Shown here piece by piece: positions 3,039 to 28,815 of a DNA stretch of 35,913 nt. The stretch's first letter is position 1. Each line of letters opens with the position of its first letter. A program made the position numbers and the translations under genes. The notes under the pieces were generated by a model. It was given only the letters and a program-made list of their open reading frames with translations. It was not told the DNA's origin and did no database searches. This DNA is from a virus. The DNA is taken from IMG/VR virus record IMGVR_UViG_3300045988_052978, positions 1-35,913 of that record; one strand, given 5' to 3'.

Positions 3039-3383
3039 TCAGGCTTCCTTCCCAGTTCCAGCCGCCGCCGGAGGGTTTTCCTTCTCATCGCCAGGCGCTT
3101 CCCCGGCGTCTTCGCCGTCATGTACTGCCTCGCCCACAGCCTCCACGGCCTTGGCGTAGATCTCCAACACTGGCAGCTTATCCAGCATGTCCTCCACCTG
3201 ACCGGGCGTCAGGCTATCGTCTTGCGCCGCCAACATGCAGTACACCGCCGTAGTCATCAGATCATAGCGCTGTACGGCCTGCTGCATTTCCGGCACGCTG
3301 ACCTTCGTCAGCGCGCTGAATTGCCGCATGGCCTTGTGGCTGAATTTCAGCTCCCGGGGCTTATCCAGATTCAAAATGACCAT
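3039..3383 (-). CDS. Tail assembly chaperone G
   Basis: 114 aa with an acidic C-terminus. It lies immediately after the major tail gene and is paired with an overlapping -1 frame ORF. Confidence 0.7.
   Translation of the reverse strand: MVILNLDKPRELKFSHKAMRQFSALTKVSVPEMQQAVQRYDLMTTAVYCMLAAQDDSLTPGQVEDMLDKLPVLEIYAKAVEAVGEAVHDGEDAGEAPGDEKENPPAAAGTGKEA
3072..3078 (-). other. Candidate -1 programmed frameshift heptamer A AAC CCT (X XXY YYZ)
   Basis: On the minus strand the G frame reads GAA AAC CCT. Slipping back one nt gives AAA CCC and joins the open T frame. The site lies inside the 45-nt window where both frames are open. Confidence 0.45.
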
Positions 3384-5092: not shown

Positions 5093-5108
5093 TGCTATCT
5101 CCTTTCCC

Positions 5109-5125
5109 GTGCCCAACTTGAGCAC
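5109..5125 (-). repeat. Dyad hairpin H1: gtgcccaacttgagcac (GTGCCC-N5-GGGCAC family)
   Basis: Imperfect 17-bp palindrome. On minus-strand RNA it forms a 7-bp stem with one G-U pair. It lies 17 nt upstream of the adaptor start codon. Its flanks (tttccc...cgat..tttaccc) are shared with H3. Confidence 0.7.
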
Positions 5126-5174
5126 CGATCTCGTTTACCCGCGGCCCTCCGTGCGAGCGCCGCACCCCTTTGTA

Positions 5175-5194
5175 GGGTGGGGCAAACCCCACCC
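5175..5194 (-). other. 8-bp GC hairpin gggtgggg-caaa-ccccaccc
   Basis: Perfect inverted repeat in the connector-adaptor spacer. Confidence 0.6.
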
Positions 5195-5200
5195 GCCGCC

Positions 5201-5217
5201 GTGCCCGATTCGGGCAC
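5201..5217. repeat. Dyad hairpin H2: gtgcccgattcgggcac (perfect 7+3+7 palindrome)
   Basis: Perfect palindrome, 48 nt downstream of the connector gene stop. Confidence 0.75.
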
Positions 5218-5226
5218 AAACCAGAC

Positions 5227-5260
5227 AACGCCGGAGCCGCCCCACGGCAGCCCCGGCGTT
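5227..5260 (-). terminator. Long stem-loop just after the connector gene stop; weak terminator/attenuator candidate
   Basis: On minus RNA, AACGCCGGGGCUGCC-GUGG-GGCGGCUCCGGCGUU forms 15 bp including two G-U pairs. The same positions are A-C mismatches on plus RNA. It is followed by GUCUGGUUUGU. Confidence 0.4.
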
Positions 5261-5264
5261 CCTC

Positions 5265-5558
5265 TCAGGACTGCGTGGGTCTCGTCAGCTTCAGCTGGGT
5301 GATGATGGGCCGGATGCCCAGCGGCAGCGCCGCCTCCGTGCCCACCGCGTCCCGGTGGTCGTAGTAGTGCAGCGTCAGGGCCCACAGCGCCAAATCGTAG
5401 CGGGCAGCCCTCGCGCTGCCGCCCTCGCCCCGCTCTGCGCCCGCGGCGGACAAATACTCCGCCGCCGCGTCATACAGCTGGCCGATCAGCTCGTCATCCT
5501 CGTTGCCGTCCACCCGCATATAGGCCTTACACGCGGCGATCTGCAATTCCGTCGCCAT
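5265..5558 (-). CDS. Head-tail connector (gp6-like, DNA-packaging/QLRG-type) protein
   Basis: 97 aa. The motif YMRVDGNEDDELIGQLYDAAAEYL is typical of gp6-like connectors. It lies immediately after the capsid gene. Confidence 0.75.
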   Translation of the reverse strand: MATELQIAACKAYMRVDGNEDDELIGQLYDAAAEYLSAAGAERGEGGSARAARYDLALWALTLHYYDHRDAVGTEAALPLGIRPIITQLKLTRPTQS

Positions 5559-9032: not shown

Positions 9033-10847
9033 CTACATGCTCCACCCGCCCTGGCGGATGCGGTCCGCCAGCGTGGGGTTATTTCGCCGCAGCAGCGCCA
9101 GCGTCAGCGCGTTCATGGCCGCCGCCACCGGGTCGATGCGTTCTGTGTCGCCCTTGTGTTTCTTACTCAAGCGGCTGTCGCCGTTGCCGTTTACGGTCTC
9201 CACCGCGTTAGCCAGGCACCACATGGCCAGCGGGCTCTCCTCCATTACCAGCTTCCCCTGGGCCAGCAAGTCCCGGAAGCCCTTCACCGCCAGGTTCTGC
9301 CCGCTGCATGACTGGAAAATCTCCACGCAGAAGTCCTCATTATTCCGCCGCTGGTTCATGGCGATGGCCAGATCGGTAGCGTTGTGGCCGTCGTAGCCCA
9401 CCTGGGTCACCTTCCAGCCGTGATCTTTCTCCCCAGCCACGATCCACTCGTCCACGAAGGCGTTTTCCGTCACCGCGCCGGGCGTCAGCGTCACATAGCC
9501 GCCCTTGGCCCACGCTGTATAGGGGACGCGGTCGGTGTGCTCGTGGCGCTGCGCGCCCTCCTCCGGCATGAACGCCTGCATTTTGATGCCCACCCGGTCG
9601 TCCGGCAGCAGCCACACCGCTGCCGCGCCGCTCAGGTCGATGCGCTTTCCCAGGTCAAAGCCGCACCAGCACTCCCGCCCGTCCGTCAGCGCCGCGAAGT
9701 CATCGCGGCTCACCTGGGCGCGTCTCGCCGCCGCCAGCAGGTTCTCGTCCAGATAGCGGTTCACCGCGCCGGTCTGCCACTTGTCCATCCGCCTGGTCAA
9801 AAAATTGCGAATTTTGTACGGGTCGTTGAAGGCATACGCCGTGGTGTACTCGCTGCGAATTTCATCCAGCAAATACTTGGCATACTCGCTGCCGTACCGC
9901 AGGCACGGATTGGCCTTGGCCCAGCAGGCCTCGTTGTGGGGGTCGTCCCCGTCGTCGATCTCCCGGATCATCACGAAGTAGGTCTCGTCCATGGGGATAT
10001 CTCCCCGCAGCATGGCCTTCAGGTTCTCCTCTTCGGCGTAGCAGGGCTTGCGCTGGGCATCGTCCCCCGCCGTGGTAATGGCGTCCAGCAACGCTTGGGG
10101 CCGCTTGCCGAAGCCGGACTTGCCCACGTCGTAGATTTCCGAGGTGGGGTGGGCGTGGTATTCGTCCACCACGAAGTAGCTGGGGGCGGCGGAGTCCTTA
10201 TTTTTGGTGTCCTTGCTCAGGGCCCGCATAAAGCCGCCCCGCGTCAGATGCACCACCGGGTTGCTCCGGGGTATCTTCAGCCGCTTCCGGATGTTGGGGC
10301 TGGCCTGGGCGATCTTTTTCGCGTCGCCAAACACTCGCATGGCCTGCCCCCGGTCCACGGCGGCACATTCCACCTCCGGTTCCATCTCAAACCTGGCCAG
10401 CTCCGGGTGATAAGGCGGATAGATCACGTCGGCGCACATGTGATAGAGGCACTGCCCGGATTTCTCCGTGCTCTTGTAGTTGCCCCGCGCCCGCTTGTTG
10501 TAGCTGACCTTGAAGCGCCGCGCTCCCGTGTCCTTCTGCACCCAGCCGTAGAGGTTGGCCAGGTCAAACACCTGCCAGGGCTCCAGCGTGATGGGCTTTC
10601 CCGCCGCCACGCCCCGCACCTGGATGCACTGGCCGAACCACCGCAGAATGCGATCGGCCCGCGTCACATCGAACACATAGGGGAAATCCTTCTTCCCCTG
10701 CCGCTTCAAATCGTCCAGGAACCGCTGGCAGGCCAGCCGCTCATACAGGCAGCACTGCTCCTTCAGCCGCCCCCGCACCACCTGCTTGGCATACACCGCG
10801 GCGGCGTGGTGCTGCCCCGTCTGGCGTTCCGGCCGTGCCGCGCCCAC
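9033..10847 (-). CDS. terL: Terminase large subunit
   Basis: 604 aa, with an ATPase N-domain and a nuclease C-domain of the expected size. It lies downstream of terS. GTG start preceded by AAGGAGGG. Confidence 0.93.
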   Translation of the reverse strand: MGAARPERQTGQHHAAAVYAKQVVRGRLKEQCCLYERLACQRFLDDLKRQGKKDFPYVFDVTRADRILRWFGQCIQVRGVAAGKPITLEPWQVFDLANLYGWVQKDTGARRFKVSYNKRARGNYKSTEKSGQCLYHMCADVIYPPYHPELARFEMEPEVECAAVDRGQAMRVFGDAKKIAQASPNIRKRLKIPRSNPVVHLTRGGFMRALSKDTKNKDSAAPSYFVVDEYHAHPTSEIYDVGKSGFGKRPQALLDAITTAGDDAQRKPCYAEEENLKAMLRGDIPMDETYFVMIREIDDGDDPHNEACWAKANPCLRYGSEYAKYLLDEIRSEYTTAYAFNDPYKIRNFLTRRMDKWQTGAVNRYLDENLLAAARRAQVSRDDFAALTDGRECWCGFDLGKRIDLSGAAAVWLLPDDRVGIKMQAFMPEEGAQRHEHTDRVPYTAWAKGGYVTLTPGAVTENAFVDEWIVAGEKDHGWKVTQVGYDGHNATDLAIAMNQRRNNEDFCVEIFQSCSGQNLAVKGFRDLLAQGKLVMEESPLAMWCLANAVETVNGNGDSRLSKKHKGDTERIDPVAAAMNALTLALLRRNNPTLADRIRQGGWSM

Positions 10848-10865
10848 TGTGCATCCCTCCTTGCA

Positions 10866-10942
10866 AAAACAAAAAGAGCCAGGGCCAACAACCGCGCATC
10901 CTCTGCGCTGTCATCGGCCCCGGCTCTCTAAGCACTGGCCCT
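10866..10942 (-). terminator. 77-bp terminator-like element, copy A (between terS and terL)
   Basis: Minus RNA reads AGAGCCGGGGCC-29 nt (inner GCGCA-N5-UGCGC)-GGCCCUGGCUCU-UUUUUGUUUUU. It is 72/77 identical to 12396-12472. It ends 18 nt before the terL start. Confidence 0.6.
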
Positions 10943-10958
10943 AAAGCTTATATTTCCC

Positions 10959-10975
10959 GTGCCCAATTCGGGCAC
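10959..10975 (-). repeat. Dyad hairpin H3: gtgcccaattcgggcac
   Basis: Lies 4 nt after the terS stop. It forms a 7-bp stem with a G-U pair on minus RNA. Its flanks are shared with H1. Confidence 0.7.
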
Positions 10976-10979
10976 CGAT

Positions 10980-11438
10980 TTACCCATACAGATCCGCGTC
11001 CGGATCCACCTCCACGGCCGCCGCCCGCTTCCGGGCCAGCTGGGCCCGCCCCGCAGGCGTCAGCCCCAGATCCTTGGCATAGCTCAGAATGGACTTCTCC
11101 AGCTTCTGCAGCTCCGTGGAGAGGGCCGTCGCGTCCTTCGGCTCGATGCCCTTGACCCGGCTAGCCTTCTGGAGTTTATCCCGCCGGGAAAGCATAGCGC
11201 AGTAGATGGCCATGACCTCCGTGTCCAGGCTGTCCAGCAGCAGCACGTTGTCCATGCGCCCTAAGATCGCCGCCCAGTACCGCCGCGCCGCGCTGTCGCC
11301 CTTCAGGAGGGAGGGCGGCTTGTCGGGCGACAGCTCCACATGGGTCAGCAGCTCGCCCTCGGCCTCCGCCCTGGCGGCCGTCTCCGCCAGCGTCAGATGC
11401 TTTGTCATGTTGTCCAGCACCTTCCCAGGCGTCGCCAT
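10980..11438 (-). CDS. terS: Terminase small subunit (P27-like)
   Basis: 152 aa. The pattern YWAAILGRM...LDTEVMAIYC...LGLTPAGRAQLARK resembles P27-family small terminases. It sits upstream of terL. Confidence 0.8.
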   Translation of the reverse strand: MATPGKVLDNMTKHLTLAETAARAEAEGELLTHVELSPDKPPSLLKGDSAARRYWAAILGRMDNVLLLDSLDTEVMAIYCAMLSRRDKLQKASRVKGIEPKDATALSTELQKLEKSILSYAKDLGLTPAGRAQLARKRAAAVEVDPDADLYG

Positions 11439-11975
11439 AGTCTCACATCCTCTCCCTGGCGGCCTCCGCCGCTTACTCCGTAGGGGCGGACGATTCTGTC
11501 CGCCCGCGCTGCGCCTTCGCAGCGCCTTGACCTGTTCCGCTGCGTTCCCGCCGCGCCTTCCCTCGGCGGGAGTCTGCCGGACGGCCGTCCCCGGCCGCCG
11601 GCAAATGAAAGGAGGATACTTCCGGCCGAACTGCCCAGGCCCCGAACCACGGCCAAACTGCCAGGCCCCGAACCCTGGTCAGACTGCCCGGTTTCGCGCC
11701 CGGTCAGCCGCCCGGCACACTCCCGCCGTCATATTTCCGTCCTGGGCCAGACGGCCTACGTCAATACGCCGCGTGGCACGCAGCCCTTCGGCCGCCCAGC
11801 CCCAAACCCCCATGAGGGAATTTTTTCTATGCACGAGGGGAAGCGGGGCATCCACAGGGGTCACGCGAAATTTTGAAAGCCCCGGGGCGGGTCGAGGCCT
11901 GTGGCCTCCGCCCGCACGCGCCCACTGCGACGCGTTCCCGTACCCGACCGCGCGCCGCCGCGCAGGCGACGCTGG
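11439..11975. other. 537-nt non-coding region between HNH and terS; probable cos / terminase recognition region
   Basis: No credible ORF is present; only Arg/Pro/Ala-rich shadow frames. It contains several short hairpins, e.g. ggcggac-N6-gtccgcc, gcgctgc-N5-gcagcgc and gaggcc-tgt-ggcctc. It also contains a tandem 24-25-bp repeat. Its position matches the cos sites of HNH-dependent HK97-like phages. Confidence 0.5.
11624..11674. repeat. Tandem 24-25-bp direct repeat ggcc(g/a)aactgcc(c)aggccccgaacc x2
   Basis: Copies at 11624-11648 and 11651-11674. A third partial box, agactgcccgg, follows at about 11681. Confidence 0.8.
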
Positions 11976-12368
11976 TCACCGAGAAGCCGCCCAGTTTTCG
12001 TGCTTCTGCATCAGCTGCTCCCGCGCCGTCTTCTGGTCGTGGTGTCGCTTGCAGAGGCTCTGCAGGTTCGATGGCTCCACGAATTTCGCCCAGTCACCGC
12101 GGTGCGGTTCGATGTGATCCACCACCGTGGCGCGGGTCCGGCCGCGAGGGTCGCCCGCGTCGTATGCCTGCGCGCACACGCGGCAGAACGGCTCCCGCAG
12201 GAGCTGCGCCGGACGAAGACTGTCCTTCCAGACCGGCAGGTTGTACCAAGCGTGATAGTCCTCGCTGACGCGGCGCTGGTGCCTGGGCCTGTGCTTATCG
12301 CACCAGCCATCCCGCGTCAGCTCCGAGCATCCGGCATGCCGGCACGGCCGTAACGGTCTACCCGCCAT
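11976..12368 (-). CDS. HNH endonuclease (packaging-associated)
   Basis: Cys-rich N-terminus (CRHAGC...WCDKH). HNH core DHIEPH...NLQSLCKRHHDQKT. It is adjacent to the terminase genes. Confidence 0.9.
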   Translation of the reverse strand: MAGRPLRPCRHAGCSELTRDGWCDKHRPRHQRRVSEDYHAWYNLPVWKDSLRPAQLLREPFCRVCAQAYDAGDPRGRTRATVVDHIEPHRGDWAKFVEPSNLQSLCKRHHDQKTAREQLMQKHENWAASR

Positions 12369-12395
12369 GGGCTATCACCTCCACGGTCAACGGGC

Positions 12396-12472
12396 AAAAC
12401 AAAAAGAGCCGAGACCAACAACCGCGCATACTCTGCGCTGTCATCGGCCCCGGCTCTCAAAGCACTGGCCCT
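12396..12472 (-). terminator. 77-bp terminator-like element, copy B (upstream of HNH; overlaps the last 10 codons of the Zn-ribbon gene)
   Basis: Ungapped alignment to 10866-10942 at offset 1530, with 5 mismatches. The 3' arm GGUCUCGGCUCU keeps pairing through two G-U pairs. It is followed by UUUUUGUUUU, 27 nt before the HNH start. Confidence 0.6.
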
Positions 12473-12647
12473 CATCCATGTCCACGATGTACTCCCGCTT
12501 GCAGTCATGGCAGAATGCTACGATCCGCCACGCCACGGCGTCCTTGGGTACCTGGATCACTTTCTTGTTCCGGCAGCCAGCGGTTGGGCACCGCAGGTAG
12601 CCGTTCTTCACTGTCAACATTCTACCATGCTTTTCTTCAATTCGCAA
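12441..12647 (-). CDS. Small zinc-ribbon protein
   Basis: 68 aa with CPTAGC...CHDC. TTG start 10 nt after AAAGGAG; an alternative ATG lies at 12620. It is the first gene after an AT-rich intergenic island. Confidence 0.6.
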   Translation of the reverse strand: MRIEEKHGRMLTVKNGYLRCPTAGCRNKKVIQVPKDAVAWRIVAFCHDCKREYIVDMDEGQCFESRGR

Positions 12648-12712
12648 GCCCTATTCGCTCCTTTCGTCATTTGCTGAACTATATTTCAAGTCTTATTCTA
12701 AGAATCAAGCGC

Positions 12713-24181: not shown

Positions 24182-24198
24182 GTGCCCAACTTGAGCAC
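24182..24198. repeat. Dyad hairpin H4: gtgcccaacttgagcac
   Basis: Identical to H1, including the flanking ggg on the minus strand. It lies 3 nt after the HIRAN-TM2 stop codon. Confidence 0.7.
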
Positions 24199-24398: not shown

Positions 24399-24947
24399 AT
24401 GGTACAAAAGTTGCAAGAAAAATGCCGAGAGGCGCGAGACCGTCTCGGCTACACCAATCAGGACATCGCCGATGCAACAGGCATCCCTTTGTCCAGCGTC
24501 AAGAACTTTTTCGCGGCCACCAGCAAGGTACCCGGCCTCGTTTACGCCGGGCTGATTTGCAAATTTCTGGGCGTCTCTATCGACGAGTGCCTTTGCATTA
24601 CGTCCGCCGAGGACGCCGAAGCGCGGCTGCGGCGGCAGCTGAAAGAGGATCATATAAATAGCGAAAACCAGCGGCTGACCGAAGTCAACAGCCTGCGGAA
24701 AGAATTGGACAAAAGTCGCCTGTCGACGATCCTTGTCCTGTCCTTTCTGTGTGCCGTCCTCTCGGTGACGCTGATTTTCTATATCGTGATGGATTTCCGC
24801 ATCAAGGACGCGGGTCTCATCCAGAGTGGCCAGGTGGGCGCCGGCGCGTGGGGCATCATCGCCCTGGTAGCCATCGCCTTCGGCGTCATGTCCTCCGCGC
24901 TGTTCTCCGCCCTGCGCTACGCCCGCCGCATCGCCTCGGAGGAGTAG
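24399..24947 (+). CDS. Membrane-tethered XRE HTH protein (HTH + coiled coil + 2 TM helices)
   Basis: The start MVQKLQEK follows AAGGAGAGGAA. HTH segment GYTNQDIADATGIPLSSVKNFF. TM segments LSTILVLSFLCAVLSVTLIFYIV and AGAWGIIALVAIAFGVMSSALF. Confidence 0.7.
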   Translation: MVQKLQEKCREARDRLGYTNQDIADATGIPLSSVKNFFAATSKVPGLVYAGLICKFLGVSIDECLCITSAEDAEARLRRQLKEDHINSENQRLTEVNSLRKELDKSRLSTILVLSFLCAVLSVTLIFYIVMDFRIKDAGLIQSGQVGAGAWGIIALVAIAFGVMSSALFSALRYARRIASEE

Positions 24948-24955
24948 GGGGGGGG
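24947..24955 (+). repeat. G9 homopolymer between the stop of the HTH-TM gene and the integrase GTG start
   Basis: The sequence taGGGGGGGGGagagacGTG. The run is the only Shine-Dalgarno-like sequence for the integrase. Confidence 0.85.
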
Positions 24956-24961
24956 AGAGAC

Positions 24962-25990
24962 GTGAAAATACCAAAGGCCACGAAGCTGCCCTCCGGCAAC
25001 TGGAATATCAACATGATGGTCGACCGCCAGCGGATATCCATCACCGCCGCCACCAGGAAAGAGGTGGAGCGCCAGGCCGCCGCCATCAAAGGCGGCGCGA
25101 AGCTGGCACCCAAAAACAGTTTGACGGTGGGCGAGGCTATCGACAAGTATATCGAGAGCAAGGACGCCGTCCTGTCCCCGTCCACGGTGGCCGGGTACAG
25201 GCGTATCCGGGCTAACGCCCTCCAGGACTTGATGCCCCGCCCCGTGGACAGCCTGACGGCTCAAGACGTGCAGCGGTCTATCAACCTCATGGCGCGGGAT
25301 AAGTCCCCTAAAACGGTGCGCAACGCTCACGGCCTCCTGAGCGCCGCCATGGCGGTGTACCGACCCGACCTGGTACTCAGGACGACCATGCCGCAAAAGC
25401 AGCGCTACGACATCGCCATCCCGTCGGACGACGATGTGGCCGCTATCATGCGCTCCGCTCAAGGCGAACCGGCAGAGCTGCCCATCCTGCTGGCCATCTG
25501 GCTGGGCCTGCGCATGTCCGAGATCCTCGGCCTCAAGTGGTCGGACGTGGACGGTGGCGTGCTGCACATCCGCCGCGCCCTGGTTGACGAGGGCGAGAAG
25601 ACCACCAAGACCTACGCATCTCAGCGCGATCTGCTGATCCCGGACTACATCGCGGAGCTGCTGGCCCGCGCTCCTCACGACGGGGAACGCATCGTGATCT
25701 ACACCCGCCGCGGGCTTTACGTCCGCTTCCAGGCCATCTGCCTCCGTGCCGGCGTCCAGCACTACCGATTCCACGACCTGCGCCATATTAACGCCTCTGT
25801 TATGCTGGCGCTGAACGTGCCCAATAAGTACTCGCAGGAGCGCCTGGGCCACGCCACGGACAACATGCTGCAAACAGTCTATCAGCACACGATGGCCGCC
25901 CAGCAACTCGCCGTCGCCGCCAAGCTGGACGACTACTTCAACGCAAAATTACAGACGGAATTACAAATGGAAAATCGAGAAACGCAGTAA
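24962..25990 (+). CDS. int: Tyrosine recombinase / phage integrase
   Basis: 342 aa from the GTG. It has an N-terminal SAM-like core-binding region. Catalytic-domain motifs LGLRMSEIL, HDLRH and LGHATDNMLQTVYQH are present. Confidence 0.9.
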   Translation: MKIPKATKLPSGNWNINMMVDRQRISITAATRKEVERQAAAIKGGAKLAPKNSLTVGEAIDKYIESKDAVLSPSTVAGYRRIRANALQDLMPRPVDSLTAQDVQRSINLMARDKSPKTVRNAHGLLSAAMAVYRPDLVLRTTMPQKQRYDIAIPSDDDVAAIMRSAQGEPAELPILLAIWLGLRMSEILGLKWSDVDGGVLHIRRALVDEGEKTTKTYASQRDLLIPDYIAELLARAPHDGERIVIYTRRGLYVRFQAICLRAGVQHYRFHDLRHINASVMLALNVPNKYSQERLGHATDNMLQTVYQHTMAAQQLAVAAKLDDYFNAKLQTELQMENRETQ

Positions 25991-26016
25991 TATCAACGAT
26001 TATAGCCGGATTTACA

Positions 26017-26044
26017 CGGGGTTCGAATCCCCGACGGGGCACCA
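26017..26044 (+). other. 3' end of a tRNA (T-arm, acceptor 3' strand, discriminator, CCA) = probable attP core
   Basis: cgggg-ttcgaat-ccccg then acggggc-a-cca. There is no matching 5' acceptor strand (gccccgt) or anticodon arm upstream, so it is a fragment. It lies 27 nt after the integrase stop. Confidence 0.75.
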
Positions 26045-28392: not shown

Positions 28393-28420
28393 GGGCCGCA
28401 CCTCCTTGTTGACTAAATTG

Positions 28421-28471
28421 TAAAACAAAAAAGACCCAACAAAGGGCCTGAAAAGGGTCCCCGTTGGGTCT
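28421..28471 (-). terminator. Rho-independent terminator after the sigma-r4-like gene
   Basis: Minus RNA reads AGACCCAAC-22 nt-GUUGGGUCU, followed by UUUUUGUUUUA. Confidence 0.6.
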
Positions 28472-28476
28472 TTCTT

Positions 28477-28728
28477 TCACTTGTTATTAACGGCGTCCGC
28501 GATCTTGCGGTAGCCCCTGCGCCTGCACTTCTTTACGTATTCCTGCGACGCGAAAAGCCGGTCGGCTACCTGCTGGCGGGACTTCCCCCGCACGTCGCAC
28601 TCGATGATACAGAACGCCTCGTCTTCCGGCAGCTCCAGGCCGGCGATGAAACTCACCGCCCGCTGGGGCGCCATAGACTGTAGTTTCGCGCGGATAGCTC
28701 GATGTGTCGGATTCATGCTGATTCCCAC
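28477..28728 (-). CDS. Small sigma-70 region-4-like HTH protein
   Basis: The segment CDVRGKSRQQVADRLFASQEYVKKCRRRGYRKIADAV resembles a sigma region 4 / YlxM-like HTH. 79-83 aa (ATG at 28716 or GTG at 28728). No clear RBS. Confidence 0.5.
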   Translation of the reverse strand: MGISMNPTHRAIRAKLQSMAPQRAVSFIAGLELPEDEAFCIIECDVRGKSRQQVADRLFASQEYVKKCRRRGYRKIADAVNNK

Positions 28729-28798: not shown

Positions 28799-28815
28799 GT
28801 GCCCGACTTGGGCAC
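28799..28815. repeat. Dyad hairpin H5: gtgcccgacttgggcac
   Basis: It begins at the endolysin stop codon. It forms a 7-bp stem with a G-U pair on plus RNA, or 6 bp on minus RNA. Confidence 0.7.

Follow-up and report, generated by a model that had tools for sequence, protein, structure and literature searches.

A predicted promoter, a zinc-ribbon gene and a terminator-type hairpin as a putative late control unit in temperate phages of gut Clostridia

Why should a phage genome carry two nearly identical terminator-like hairpins, each placed directly ahead of a gene of its late, DNA-packaging region? The question arises from the IMG/VR record IMGVR_UViG_3300045988_052978, a complete 35.9-kb virus with terminal repeats, whose full 35,913 nucleotides (nt) are referred to here as the window. 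A sequence-only reading of the window had described two 77-nt elements that bracket the HNH endonuclease gene, cos and terS. Comparison with related phages leads to a different account. One element (copy B, or Term B) belongs to a conserved unit made of a predicted promoter, a small zinc-ribbon (Zn-ribbon) gene and the hairpin itself, and the other (copy A, or Term A) has recently been copied from it. The unit is widespread and previously undescribed, and judging from its sequence and surroundings it probably switches on the late genes.

The two elements, at 10866–10942 and 12396–12472, are direct repeats that align without gaps at an offset of 1530 bp and agree at 72 of 77 positions, just as had been stated; a 27-nt core is found at these two places and nowhere else in the window (0 expected). 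They lie within a minus-strand gene order that runs from the replication initiator through a 68-amino-acid (aa) zinc-ribbon open reading frame (ORF), HNH, an ORF-free spacer, terS and terL to the portal gene. The distances given for them also hold, 18 nt from copy A to the GTG of terL (10847) and 27 nt from copy B to the ATG of HNH (12368). Both stand directly before late or packaging genes, with no room for a promoter between.

As minus-strand RNA, both copies form an outer stem of 18–19 bp, a one-nucleotide symmetric break and an inner GCGCA/UGCGC stem of 5 bp (23–24 bp in total). Their fold energies are −50.4 and −51.2 kcal/mol (z-scores −6.6 and −7.9), and plus-strand RNA of the same copies reaches only about −31 kcal/mol. 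Directly 3′ of both hairpins is a U-tract, TTTTGTTTT, and the tract after the 23–24-bp hairpins is also given as UUUUGUUUU. A standard terminator scan missed both long hairpins owing to its stem and loop limits and was replaced by our own genome-wide scan for hairpins before T-runs, in which copies A and B rank far above all other coding-strand sites. Neither copy matches Rfam, at the gathering threshold or at E≤1.

The five differences between the copies are distributed much as the sequence-only reading had them: one in the 5′ flank, which creates the TAG seen in copy A, one in the loop, and three in the 3′ arm, each of these a G-C/G-U exchange opposite G. The reading had argued from these exchanges for selection on RNA. 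The exchanges are real, but the argument is weak by itself, the chance of three pair-preserving changes being P = 0.008 if all substitutions are equally likely and P = 0.23 if only transitions are considered. The RNA structure is well supported because of covariation among relatives, and not because of the comparison of A with B.

These relatives were found in IMG/VR through TerL and are labelled L005, L006 and so on; they keep the order Zn-ribbon, HNH, terS, terL. A search of related phages with covariation testing, which had been proposed as a check, found a long hairpin with a T-run between the Zn-ribbon gene and HNH in 18 of the 21 relatives that have an HNH upstream region, compensatory changes included. 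The outer stem (AGCCGGRGCC...) is alike in sequence across these phages, and the inner stem and loop show no sequence relationship yet always pair. In essentially every family member the T-run begins directly past the stem. RNAalifold applied to 19 elements predicted an outer stem of 12 pairs; compensatory changes occur at 5 of these, and G-U pairs are frequent.

The covariance model made from the relatives' elements (CM R1) recovers one of them in nearly every related locus. Over 73 distinct rows, 97.8% of cells are paired, against 24–44% in slid controls, and double changes occupy 99 cells against 24.8 in shuffles, with none of 500 shuffles reaching the observed value. Of 54 unique elements, 53 fold more stably in sense than in antisense (mean difference 10.9 kcal/mol), and G-U pairs average 5.1 per element in sense and 0.7 in antisense. 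Such sense-only G-U pairing, together with the covariation, shows selection on a sense-strand RNA hairpin, and the minus-strand structure of intrinsic-terminator type that had been proposed from the window is in this way borne out family-wide. By every sequence criterion the elements are intrinsic (Rho-independent) terminators, with unusually long stems of 23–28 bp at −40 to −53 kcal/mol.

A search pattern combining 5′ flank and stem, GCCAGTGCNNNGAGNGCCNGNGCC, matched 91 viral contigs, which yield 56 distinct elements. In 54 of the 56 the Zn-ribbon ORF ends within the 5′ arm, its stop codon always about 15 nt in; the overlap of copy B with roughly the last 10 Zn-ribbon codons, noted earlier for the window, is one instance. 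HNH starts 7–27 nt past the element, and the ribosome-binding site (RBS) of the next gene is within about 10–25 nt. Just before the first late gene stands GGAGGTGATAGCCC (window 12369–12382, minus strand), kept in 42 of the 56 elements even where a different HNH type follows. It resembles a module junction used in mosaic exchange. The 15-nt 5′ flank, GGCCAGNGCNNNGAG, travels with the hairpin and is kept at coding and non-coding copies; it may be functional, or conversion or common descent could account for its conservation equally well.

The same arrangement of promoter, Zn-ribbon gene and terminator adjoins Zn-ribbon homologues of only 40–44% identity, and a unit of the copy B type is present in the cultured Flavonifractor phage Cormatin. 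Prophage copies confirmed by the covariance model occur in Intestinimonas, Oscillibacter, Oscillospiraceae, Lachnospiraceae and Clostridiales genomes. A pattern scan of genome contigs returned mostly chance matches in GC-rich genomes; the model confirmed 6 of the 15 loci checked, all of them in Clostridia. On our reading this terminator family is specific to a group of temperate phages of gut Clostridia (Oscillospiraceae, Lachnospiraceae).

The promoter, P_int, is predicted within the Zn-ribbon gene and comes near the consensus for a sigma-A promoter with an extended −10. Its −35 TTG doubles as the start codon of the ORF (with an RBS 8–10 nt upstream), so P_int transcripts cannot encode the Zn-ribbon protein; in L011 there is no in-frame start past the predicted transcription start site. 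An alignment of 12 relatives shows TTG and TG-TA-A--T to be invariant and the sequence of the 17-nt spacer (codons 2–8) not to be conserved. Information content peaks exactly at the −35 and −10 boxes, and the residues encoded at the −10 box vary (HGKL, SDTI, CDKI, SVRL) though the box itself is kept. The strict pattern TTGnnn-17-TGnTAnnnT ends 137–146 nt upstream of the element in 48 of 56 cases. Among 71 distinct loci (678 kb) it was found 62 times at the P_int position; other sense-strand sites account for 11 matches, and a single one falls past the terminator.

Of the sigma-70-like sites on the window's minus strand only one, in the lysogeny switch region, scores better than P_int. The window scan found no other good sigma-70-like site before the late genes and no sigma-A promoter between the terS stop and Term A, and even a loose pattern picked up nothing promoter-like in the HNH-terS spacer of 13 out of 14 phages. 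Given the lack of a further sigma-A-type promoter downstream, we infer that late transcription must pass Term B and, in the window, also Term A and a third family member, element C. This bears out in part the sequence-only reading, which had proposed antitermination or attenuation control of the late genes. About 45 nt upstream of the Zn-ribbon start is a conserved motif, GACTTGAAATATAG (window 12676–12692, minus strand), which is common to many relatives and reads CTTGAAATCTAG in Cormatin; it could serve as a second promoter element or as a site for a regulator.

All 11 Zn-ribbon relatives submitted to hmmscan against Pfam-A match PF14205 (Cys_rich_KTR), the top families otherwise being weak generic zinc ribbons, and there is a weak Elf1-like match; the Com family is absent among the 25 most-matched families of this search. 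PHROG 6417 ('translational regulator') weakly matches 8 of the 11. The Zn-ribbon family comprises at least 524 clusters of 66–68 aa, all unnamed, and the literature on PF14205 is uninformative on function. By its position and strict linkage, the protein is the leading candidate for an antitermination factor.

Copy A has a history of its own. Most genomes carry a single copy of the element. Only a small subclade, the window and L005–L008, has a spacer between terS and terL, occupied by a small hairpin (HP1) and a terminator; in every other relative the two genes overlap, stop of terS on start of terL. In the nearest relative, L005 (TerL 98%), copy B is 100% identical to that of the window over 101 nt, and the terS-terL terminator is a different but homologous sequence, GAGCGCCGGTGCCATTCCCC..., with orthologous flanks on both sides. 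L006–L008 have the same arrangement, again with a diverged terminator at the terS-terL site. A diverged terminator at this site in all four relatives, along with an identical copy B in L005, points to recent replacement of the window's copy A by copy B. From these alignments copy A is a recent gene conversion, in which at most 77 nt of copy B overwrote an older paralogous terminator, and the near-identity of A and B is its consequence. The conversion tract ends within short stretches already common to both paralogues.

The bracket around HNH, cos and terS is, by this comparison, not a conserved design. Most relatives have copy B only, with overlapping terS and terL, and the near-identity reflects recent conversion rather than a cassette border; the bracketing is a lineage-specific accident of gene conversion. 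The duplication is nevertheless real. An assembly artefact, which the sequence-only reading had named as a way in which it could be wrong, is contradicted by a copy A-terL junction that is identical in two independent ENA metagenome assemblies.

Further family members turn up sporadically. Element C (Table 1) scores 20.1 bits with CM R1 (E 0.004); second family copies in L011 and L087 lie past one or more small genes that come after the probable capsid gene, and element C is at the equivalent position. L016 has tandem family terminators before HNH (2172–2348), the first overlapping the Zn-ribbon stop and the second non-coding, with the GGCCAGCGC flank kept. No ORF runs into the non-coding copies (copy A, element C, and the second copies in L087, L011 and L067). 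A bidirectional terminator, its hairpin set between A- and T-runs, is found at window 28414–28488, close to where the minus-strand late operon ends, and is weakly matched by the family model (13.9 bits).

HP1, defined as GTGYYC-N5-GRRCAC, accompanies some of these sites. The window has 5 copies (5109–5125, 5201–5217, 10959–10975, 24182–24198 and 28799–28815) against 0.02 expected, and 77 of 123 related loci have 1–5 copies, always intergenic and often 1–6 nt ahead of a Shine-Dalgarno sequence. The head-tail spacer of the window (5093–5264, 172 nt) contains in order element C, an HP1, two further GC hairpins, and a second HP1 just before the RBS. The HP1 stem variant is uniform within each genome (GTGCCC or GTGTCC), and imperfect copies have sense-strand G-U in 12 cases and A-C in 2. 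HP1 could be the site for a genome-specific RNA- or DNA-binding factor.

Table 1. Coordinates of the two repeats, the predicted promoter and neighbouring features in the window.
Feature	Position	Strand	Description
Copy B (Term B)	12396–12472	−	5′ flank AGGGCCAGTGCTTTG 12472–12458, hairpin 12457–12405, U-tract TTTTGTTTT 12404–12396; CM R1 79.9 bits
Copy A (Term A)	10865–10942	−	Flank AGGGCCAGTGCTTAG 10942–10928, hairpin 10927–10875, U-tract TTTTGTTTTT 10874–10865; CM R1 83 bits
Zn-ribbon gene	12441–12647	−	68 aa from TTG start; Cys_rich_KTR, PF14205; stop (12441–12443) within Term B 5′ arm
P_int	12619–12647	−	Predicted promoter, sigma-A-type with extended −10: TTGCGA-17-TGgTAGAAT
HNH endonuclease gene	11976–12368	−	First gene past Term B; preceded by conserved GGAGGTGATAGCCC
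HNH-terS spacer	11439–11975	−	ORF-free; probable cos region; no sigma-A-like promoter
terS	10980–11438	−	Terminase_4
HP1 palindrome/hairpin	10959–10975	−	GTGCCCGAATTGGGCAC; between terS stop and Term A; 1 of 5 genome copies
terL	9033–10847	−	GTG start 18 nt past copy A; RBS AAGGAGG ahead
Element C	5210–5274	−	Third, diverged family member; AACGCCGGGGCTGCC-GTGG-GGCGGCTCCGGCGTT, poor U-tract; head/tail gene boundary

How would such a unit work? We think it probable, on balance, that both copies are intrinsic terminators, B, the conserved founding member of the family, closing a conserved late-gene unit that is read through by regulated antitermination and A being a converted paralogue. The unit would cover about 250 bp: the RBS and TTG of the 67-aa Zn-ribbon gene, P_int in codons 1–10, the rest of the ORF serving as a leader of about 150 nt, and a terminator that holds the ORF stop. 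From P_int, and through Term B, transcription would reach HNH as the first late gene, then cos, terS, terL and the virion genes. The most likely mechanism would be regulated antitermination as at lambda PR′-tR′. That these hairpins do terminate, that antitermination is needed and that the Zn-ribbon protein is its factor, we infer from the arrangement of sequences.

A bolder version, which we offer as speculative and rather doubtful, makes the unit of about 250 bp a self-contained late switch. The Zn-ribbon protein would represent a new antiterminator class. As the late promoter sits in its own first codons, only early transcripts would supply it, and it would let polymerase that starts at this embedded promoter pass the giant terminators marked by the GGCCAGNGCNNNGAG flank (Term B and, in some phages, extra copies such as Term A and element C). 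It would do so by binding the flank RNA or by modifying polymerase at the promoter, and the dispersed HP1 hairpins may belong to the same regulon.

Several points tell against regulated antitermination at these sites. The terS-terL terminator is missing from most relatives and so is not essential to the design, and non-coding copies may keep their 5′ flank through repeated conversion, not function. Promoters that are activator-dependent or not of sigma-A type would escape the scans used. A profile search with the Zn-ribbon family against the PDB gave nothing significant, an AlphaFold model of the protein (pLDDT 76.7) had no Foldseek match at E<1, and no Q, RinA, ArpU or sigma homologue was found among the early ORFs tested. 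The Cormatin literature that was searched yielded no transcript data.

The same hairpins could instead be constitutive, partly leaky attenuators that have no dedicated antiterminator and stop a fixed fraction of transcripts, the late genes being expressed from the readthrough fraction. They would then end the early operon, insulate the late genes of the prophage, and set dosage (HNH low, terS above terL, and head above tail at element C). Dosage boundaries do carry family members: one such site is between terS and terL, and in the window, L011 and L087 another is past the small gene that comes after the probable capsid gene. No gene for a known antiterminator turned up among the early ORFs tested, and the U-tract of element C is degenerate, as expected of a weak attenuator. 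We nonetheless regard this as unlikely: hairpins of −40 to −50 kcal/mol with 8–9 U are expected to terminate very efficiently, the genes for all the abundant virion proteins come after two such sites and have no further sigma-A promoter, and a strong constitutive-looking promoter right ahead of a terminator is hard to explain without regulation. Attenuation might also be coupled to translation, with a ribosome at the stop codon masking the 5′ arm, so that translated early transcripts read through and untranslated RNA from P_int ends at about 215 nt. The near-constant position of the stop some 15 nt into the 5′ arm (54 of 56 elements) speaks for this, as do the absence of the TTG start from P_int transcripts and of any in-frame start past the predicted start site in L011. 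Non-coding members such as copy A, element C and the second copies in L087, L011 and L067 are a difficulty, there being no entering ORF, and the conserved promoter is left without a role. In Bacillus subtilis transcription and translation are reportedly uncoupled, and the model is further disfavoured if Clostridia share this trait; we judge it improbable.

A post-transcriptional role has also to be weighed, in which the elements are processing sites of the RNase III type, or 3′ or 5′ stabilisers that segment the late transcript, the U-tract being secondary. The stems, at 23–28 bp, are within the size range of RNase III substrates, the elements adjoin ribosome-binding sites, and in several relatives the 5′ flank can pair past the U-tract (GGCCAG/TTGGCC, GCCGGAG/CTCCGGT, GGCCAGCGC/GCGCTGAGCC) to form a lower helix that would exist only in readthrough RNA. 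This helix is not consistently present, however, and the T-run past the stem in essentially all members is a hallmark of intrinsic termination that processing does not need, which makes such a role quite improbable. Finally, the repeats could act as DNA, as recombination substrates of the promoter-early stem-loop (PeSL) kind for exchange, deletion or capture of the HNH-cos-terS cassette, much as the sequence-only reading had suggested. Conversion between the two sites did occur, the element is tandemly duplicated in L016, and the finding of different HNH types behind the same terminator and GGAGGTGATAGCCC junction suggests a module boundary in mosaic exchange. We consider this very improbable all the same, since sense-only G-U pairing and covariation show selection on RNA and not DNA, most relatives have a single copy, and A and B are identical over no more than 28 nt at a stretch. 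The genes between them are conserved and essential, and the relatives yielded no variant in which this cassette is deleted or exchanged; loss of the 1530 bp would take away cos, HNH and terS, leaving DNA that could not be packaged.

The HNH-terS spacer of the window includes a 26-bp tandem repeat at 11635–11686 (CCAGGCCCCGAACC...), and the k-mers CCCTCCCCCC and GAAAAATTCCC are common to the HNH-terS spacers of relatives; repeat and k-mers are probably cos or terminase-binding features. Within the same spacer, at 11741–11805 on the minus strand, is a match to the Rfam DUF3800-VIII RNA (46 bits, above the gathering score), an RNA family with no known function (PMC5737381). Among 15 relatives only L008 has it (3108–3173), and with presence in just the window and L008, of 16 sources, we rejected DUF3800-VIII as a general part of the system. 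Elsewhere in the window, a piece resembling a tRNA 3′ end (GGTTCGAATCCCC...CACCA) lies at about 26016–26044 on the plus strand, just past the ORF at 24749–25990, and is followed by a terminator. From its position this ORF is the presumed integrase. No complete tRNA was found at the tRNA-like piece, which is probably an attP core matching a host tRNA gene.

Control of late genes is well understood in lambdoid phages of E. coli and for the RinA/ArpU-type activators of some Firmicutes; next to nothing is known of it in the abundant temperate phages of gut Clostridia. The unit of promoter, Zn-ribbon gene and terminator, which recurs in over 90 viral contigs and in prophages of Clostridia, may be the late control point of these phages, and a cultured, inducible example is available in phage Cormatin of Flavonifractor plautii YL31. 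It suggests a plausible role for the uncharacterised Pfam family PF14205. Copy A additionally shows, in a clean natural case, how gene conversion can homogenise two regulatory RNA elements of one phage genome. If the terminators prove to be ordinary leaky attenuators, the result is useful annotation and little beyond.

With canonical Rho-independent terminators the family shares a GC-rich stem-loop and U-tract on the sense strand and a location at operon ends and dosage boundaries; it differs in its stems of 23–28 bp, in the travelling flank GGCCAGNGCNNNGAG, and in the closeness of the next RBS, within about 10–25 nt. Such terminators include intra-operon attenuators, T-phi past the capsid gene of phage T7 being one. 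Antitermination or translational control by small RNA-binding proteins, as in the BglG/LicT RAT-terminator systems and with Com, the zinc-finger translational activator of phage Mu, may be comparable: in our family a conserved RNA sequence overlaps the 5′ side of the terminator and a small zinc-ribbon gene adjoins it, any binding being hypothetical. BglG and LicT differ in that the present system has no CAT/PRD protein and no demonstrated alternative antiterminator structure, and Mu Com in that Com is outside the top 25 Pfam-A families for the 11 Zn-ribbon members. PeSLs are mobile regulatory cassettes of T4-type phages and resemble our elements as repeated regulatory stem-loops at module junctions with recombination between copies. 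In the window, by contrast, only one copy has a promoter, selection is visible at the RNA level, and the HNH-cos-terS segment between copies is conserved and syntenic in all relatives rather than variable cargo.

The closest comparison is with the lambdoid late switch, where the always-active PR′ is terminated at tR′ until the antiterminator Q acts, giving a short RNA of the 6S/StxS type (PMC7547250). Both systems have a strong constitutive-looking promoter and then an intrinsic terminator within about 200 nt, ahead of a long late operon in which no other promoter is seen, here as judged by sigma-A-type motifs. In both, too, the late operon crosses cos into terS and terL, and the unit ends the early operon beside a gene for a small zinc-binding protein. 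Lambda Q likewise binds zinc. In the present case the hosts are Clostridia, the early ORFs tested include no Q-family member, and the candidate is a Cys_rich_KTR zinc ribbon of 67 aa that has no known relatives with an established function. The promoter here is embedded in the candidate regulator's own coding sequence, whose stop codon lies within the terminator.

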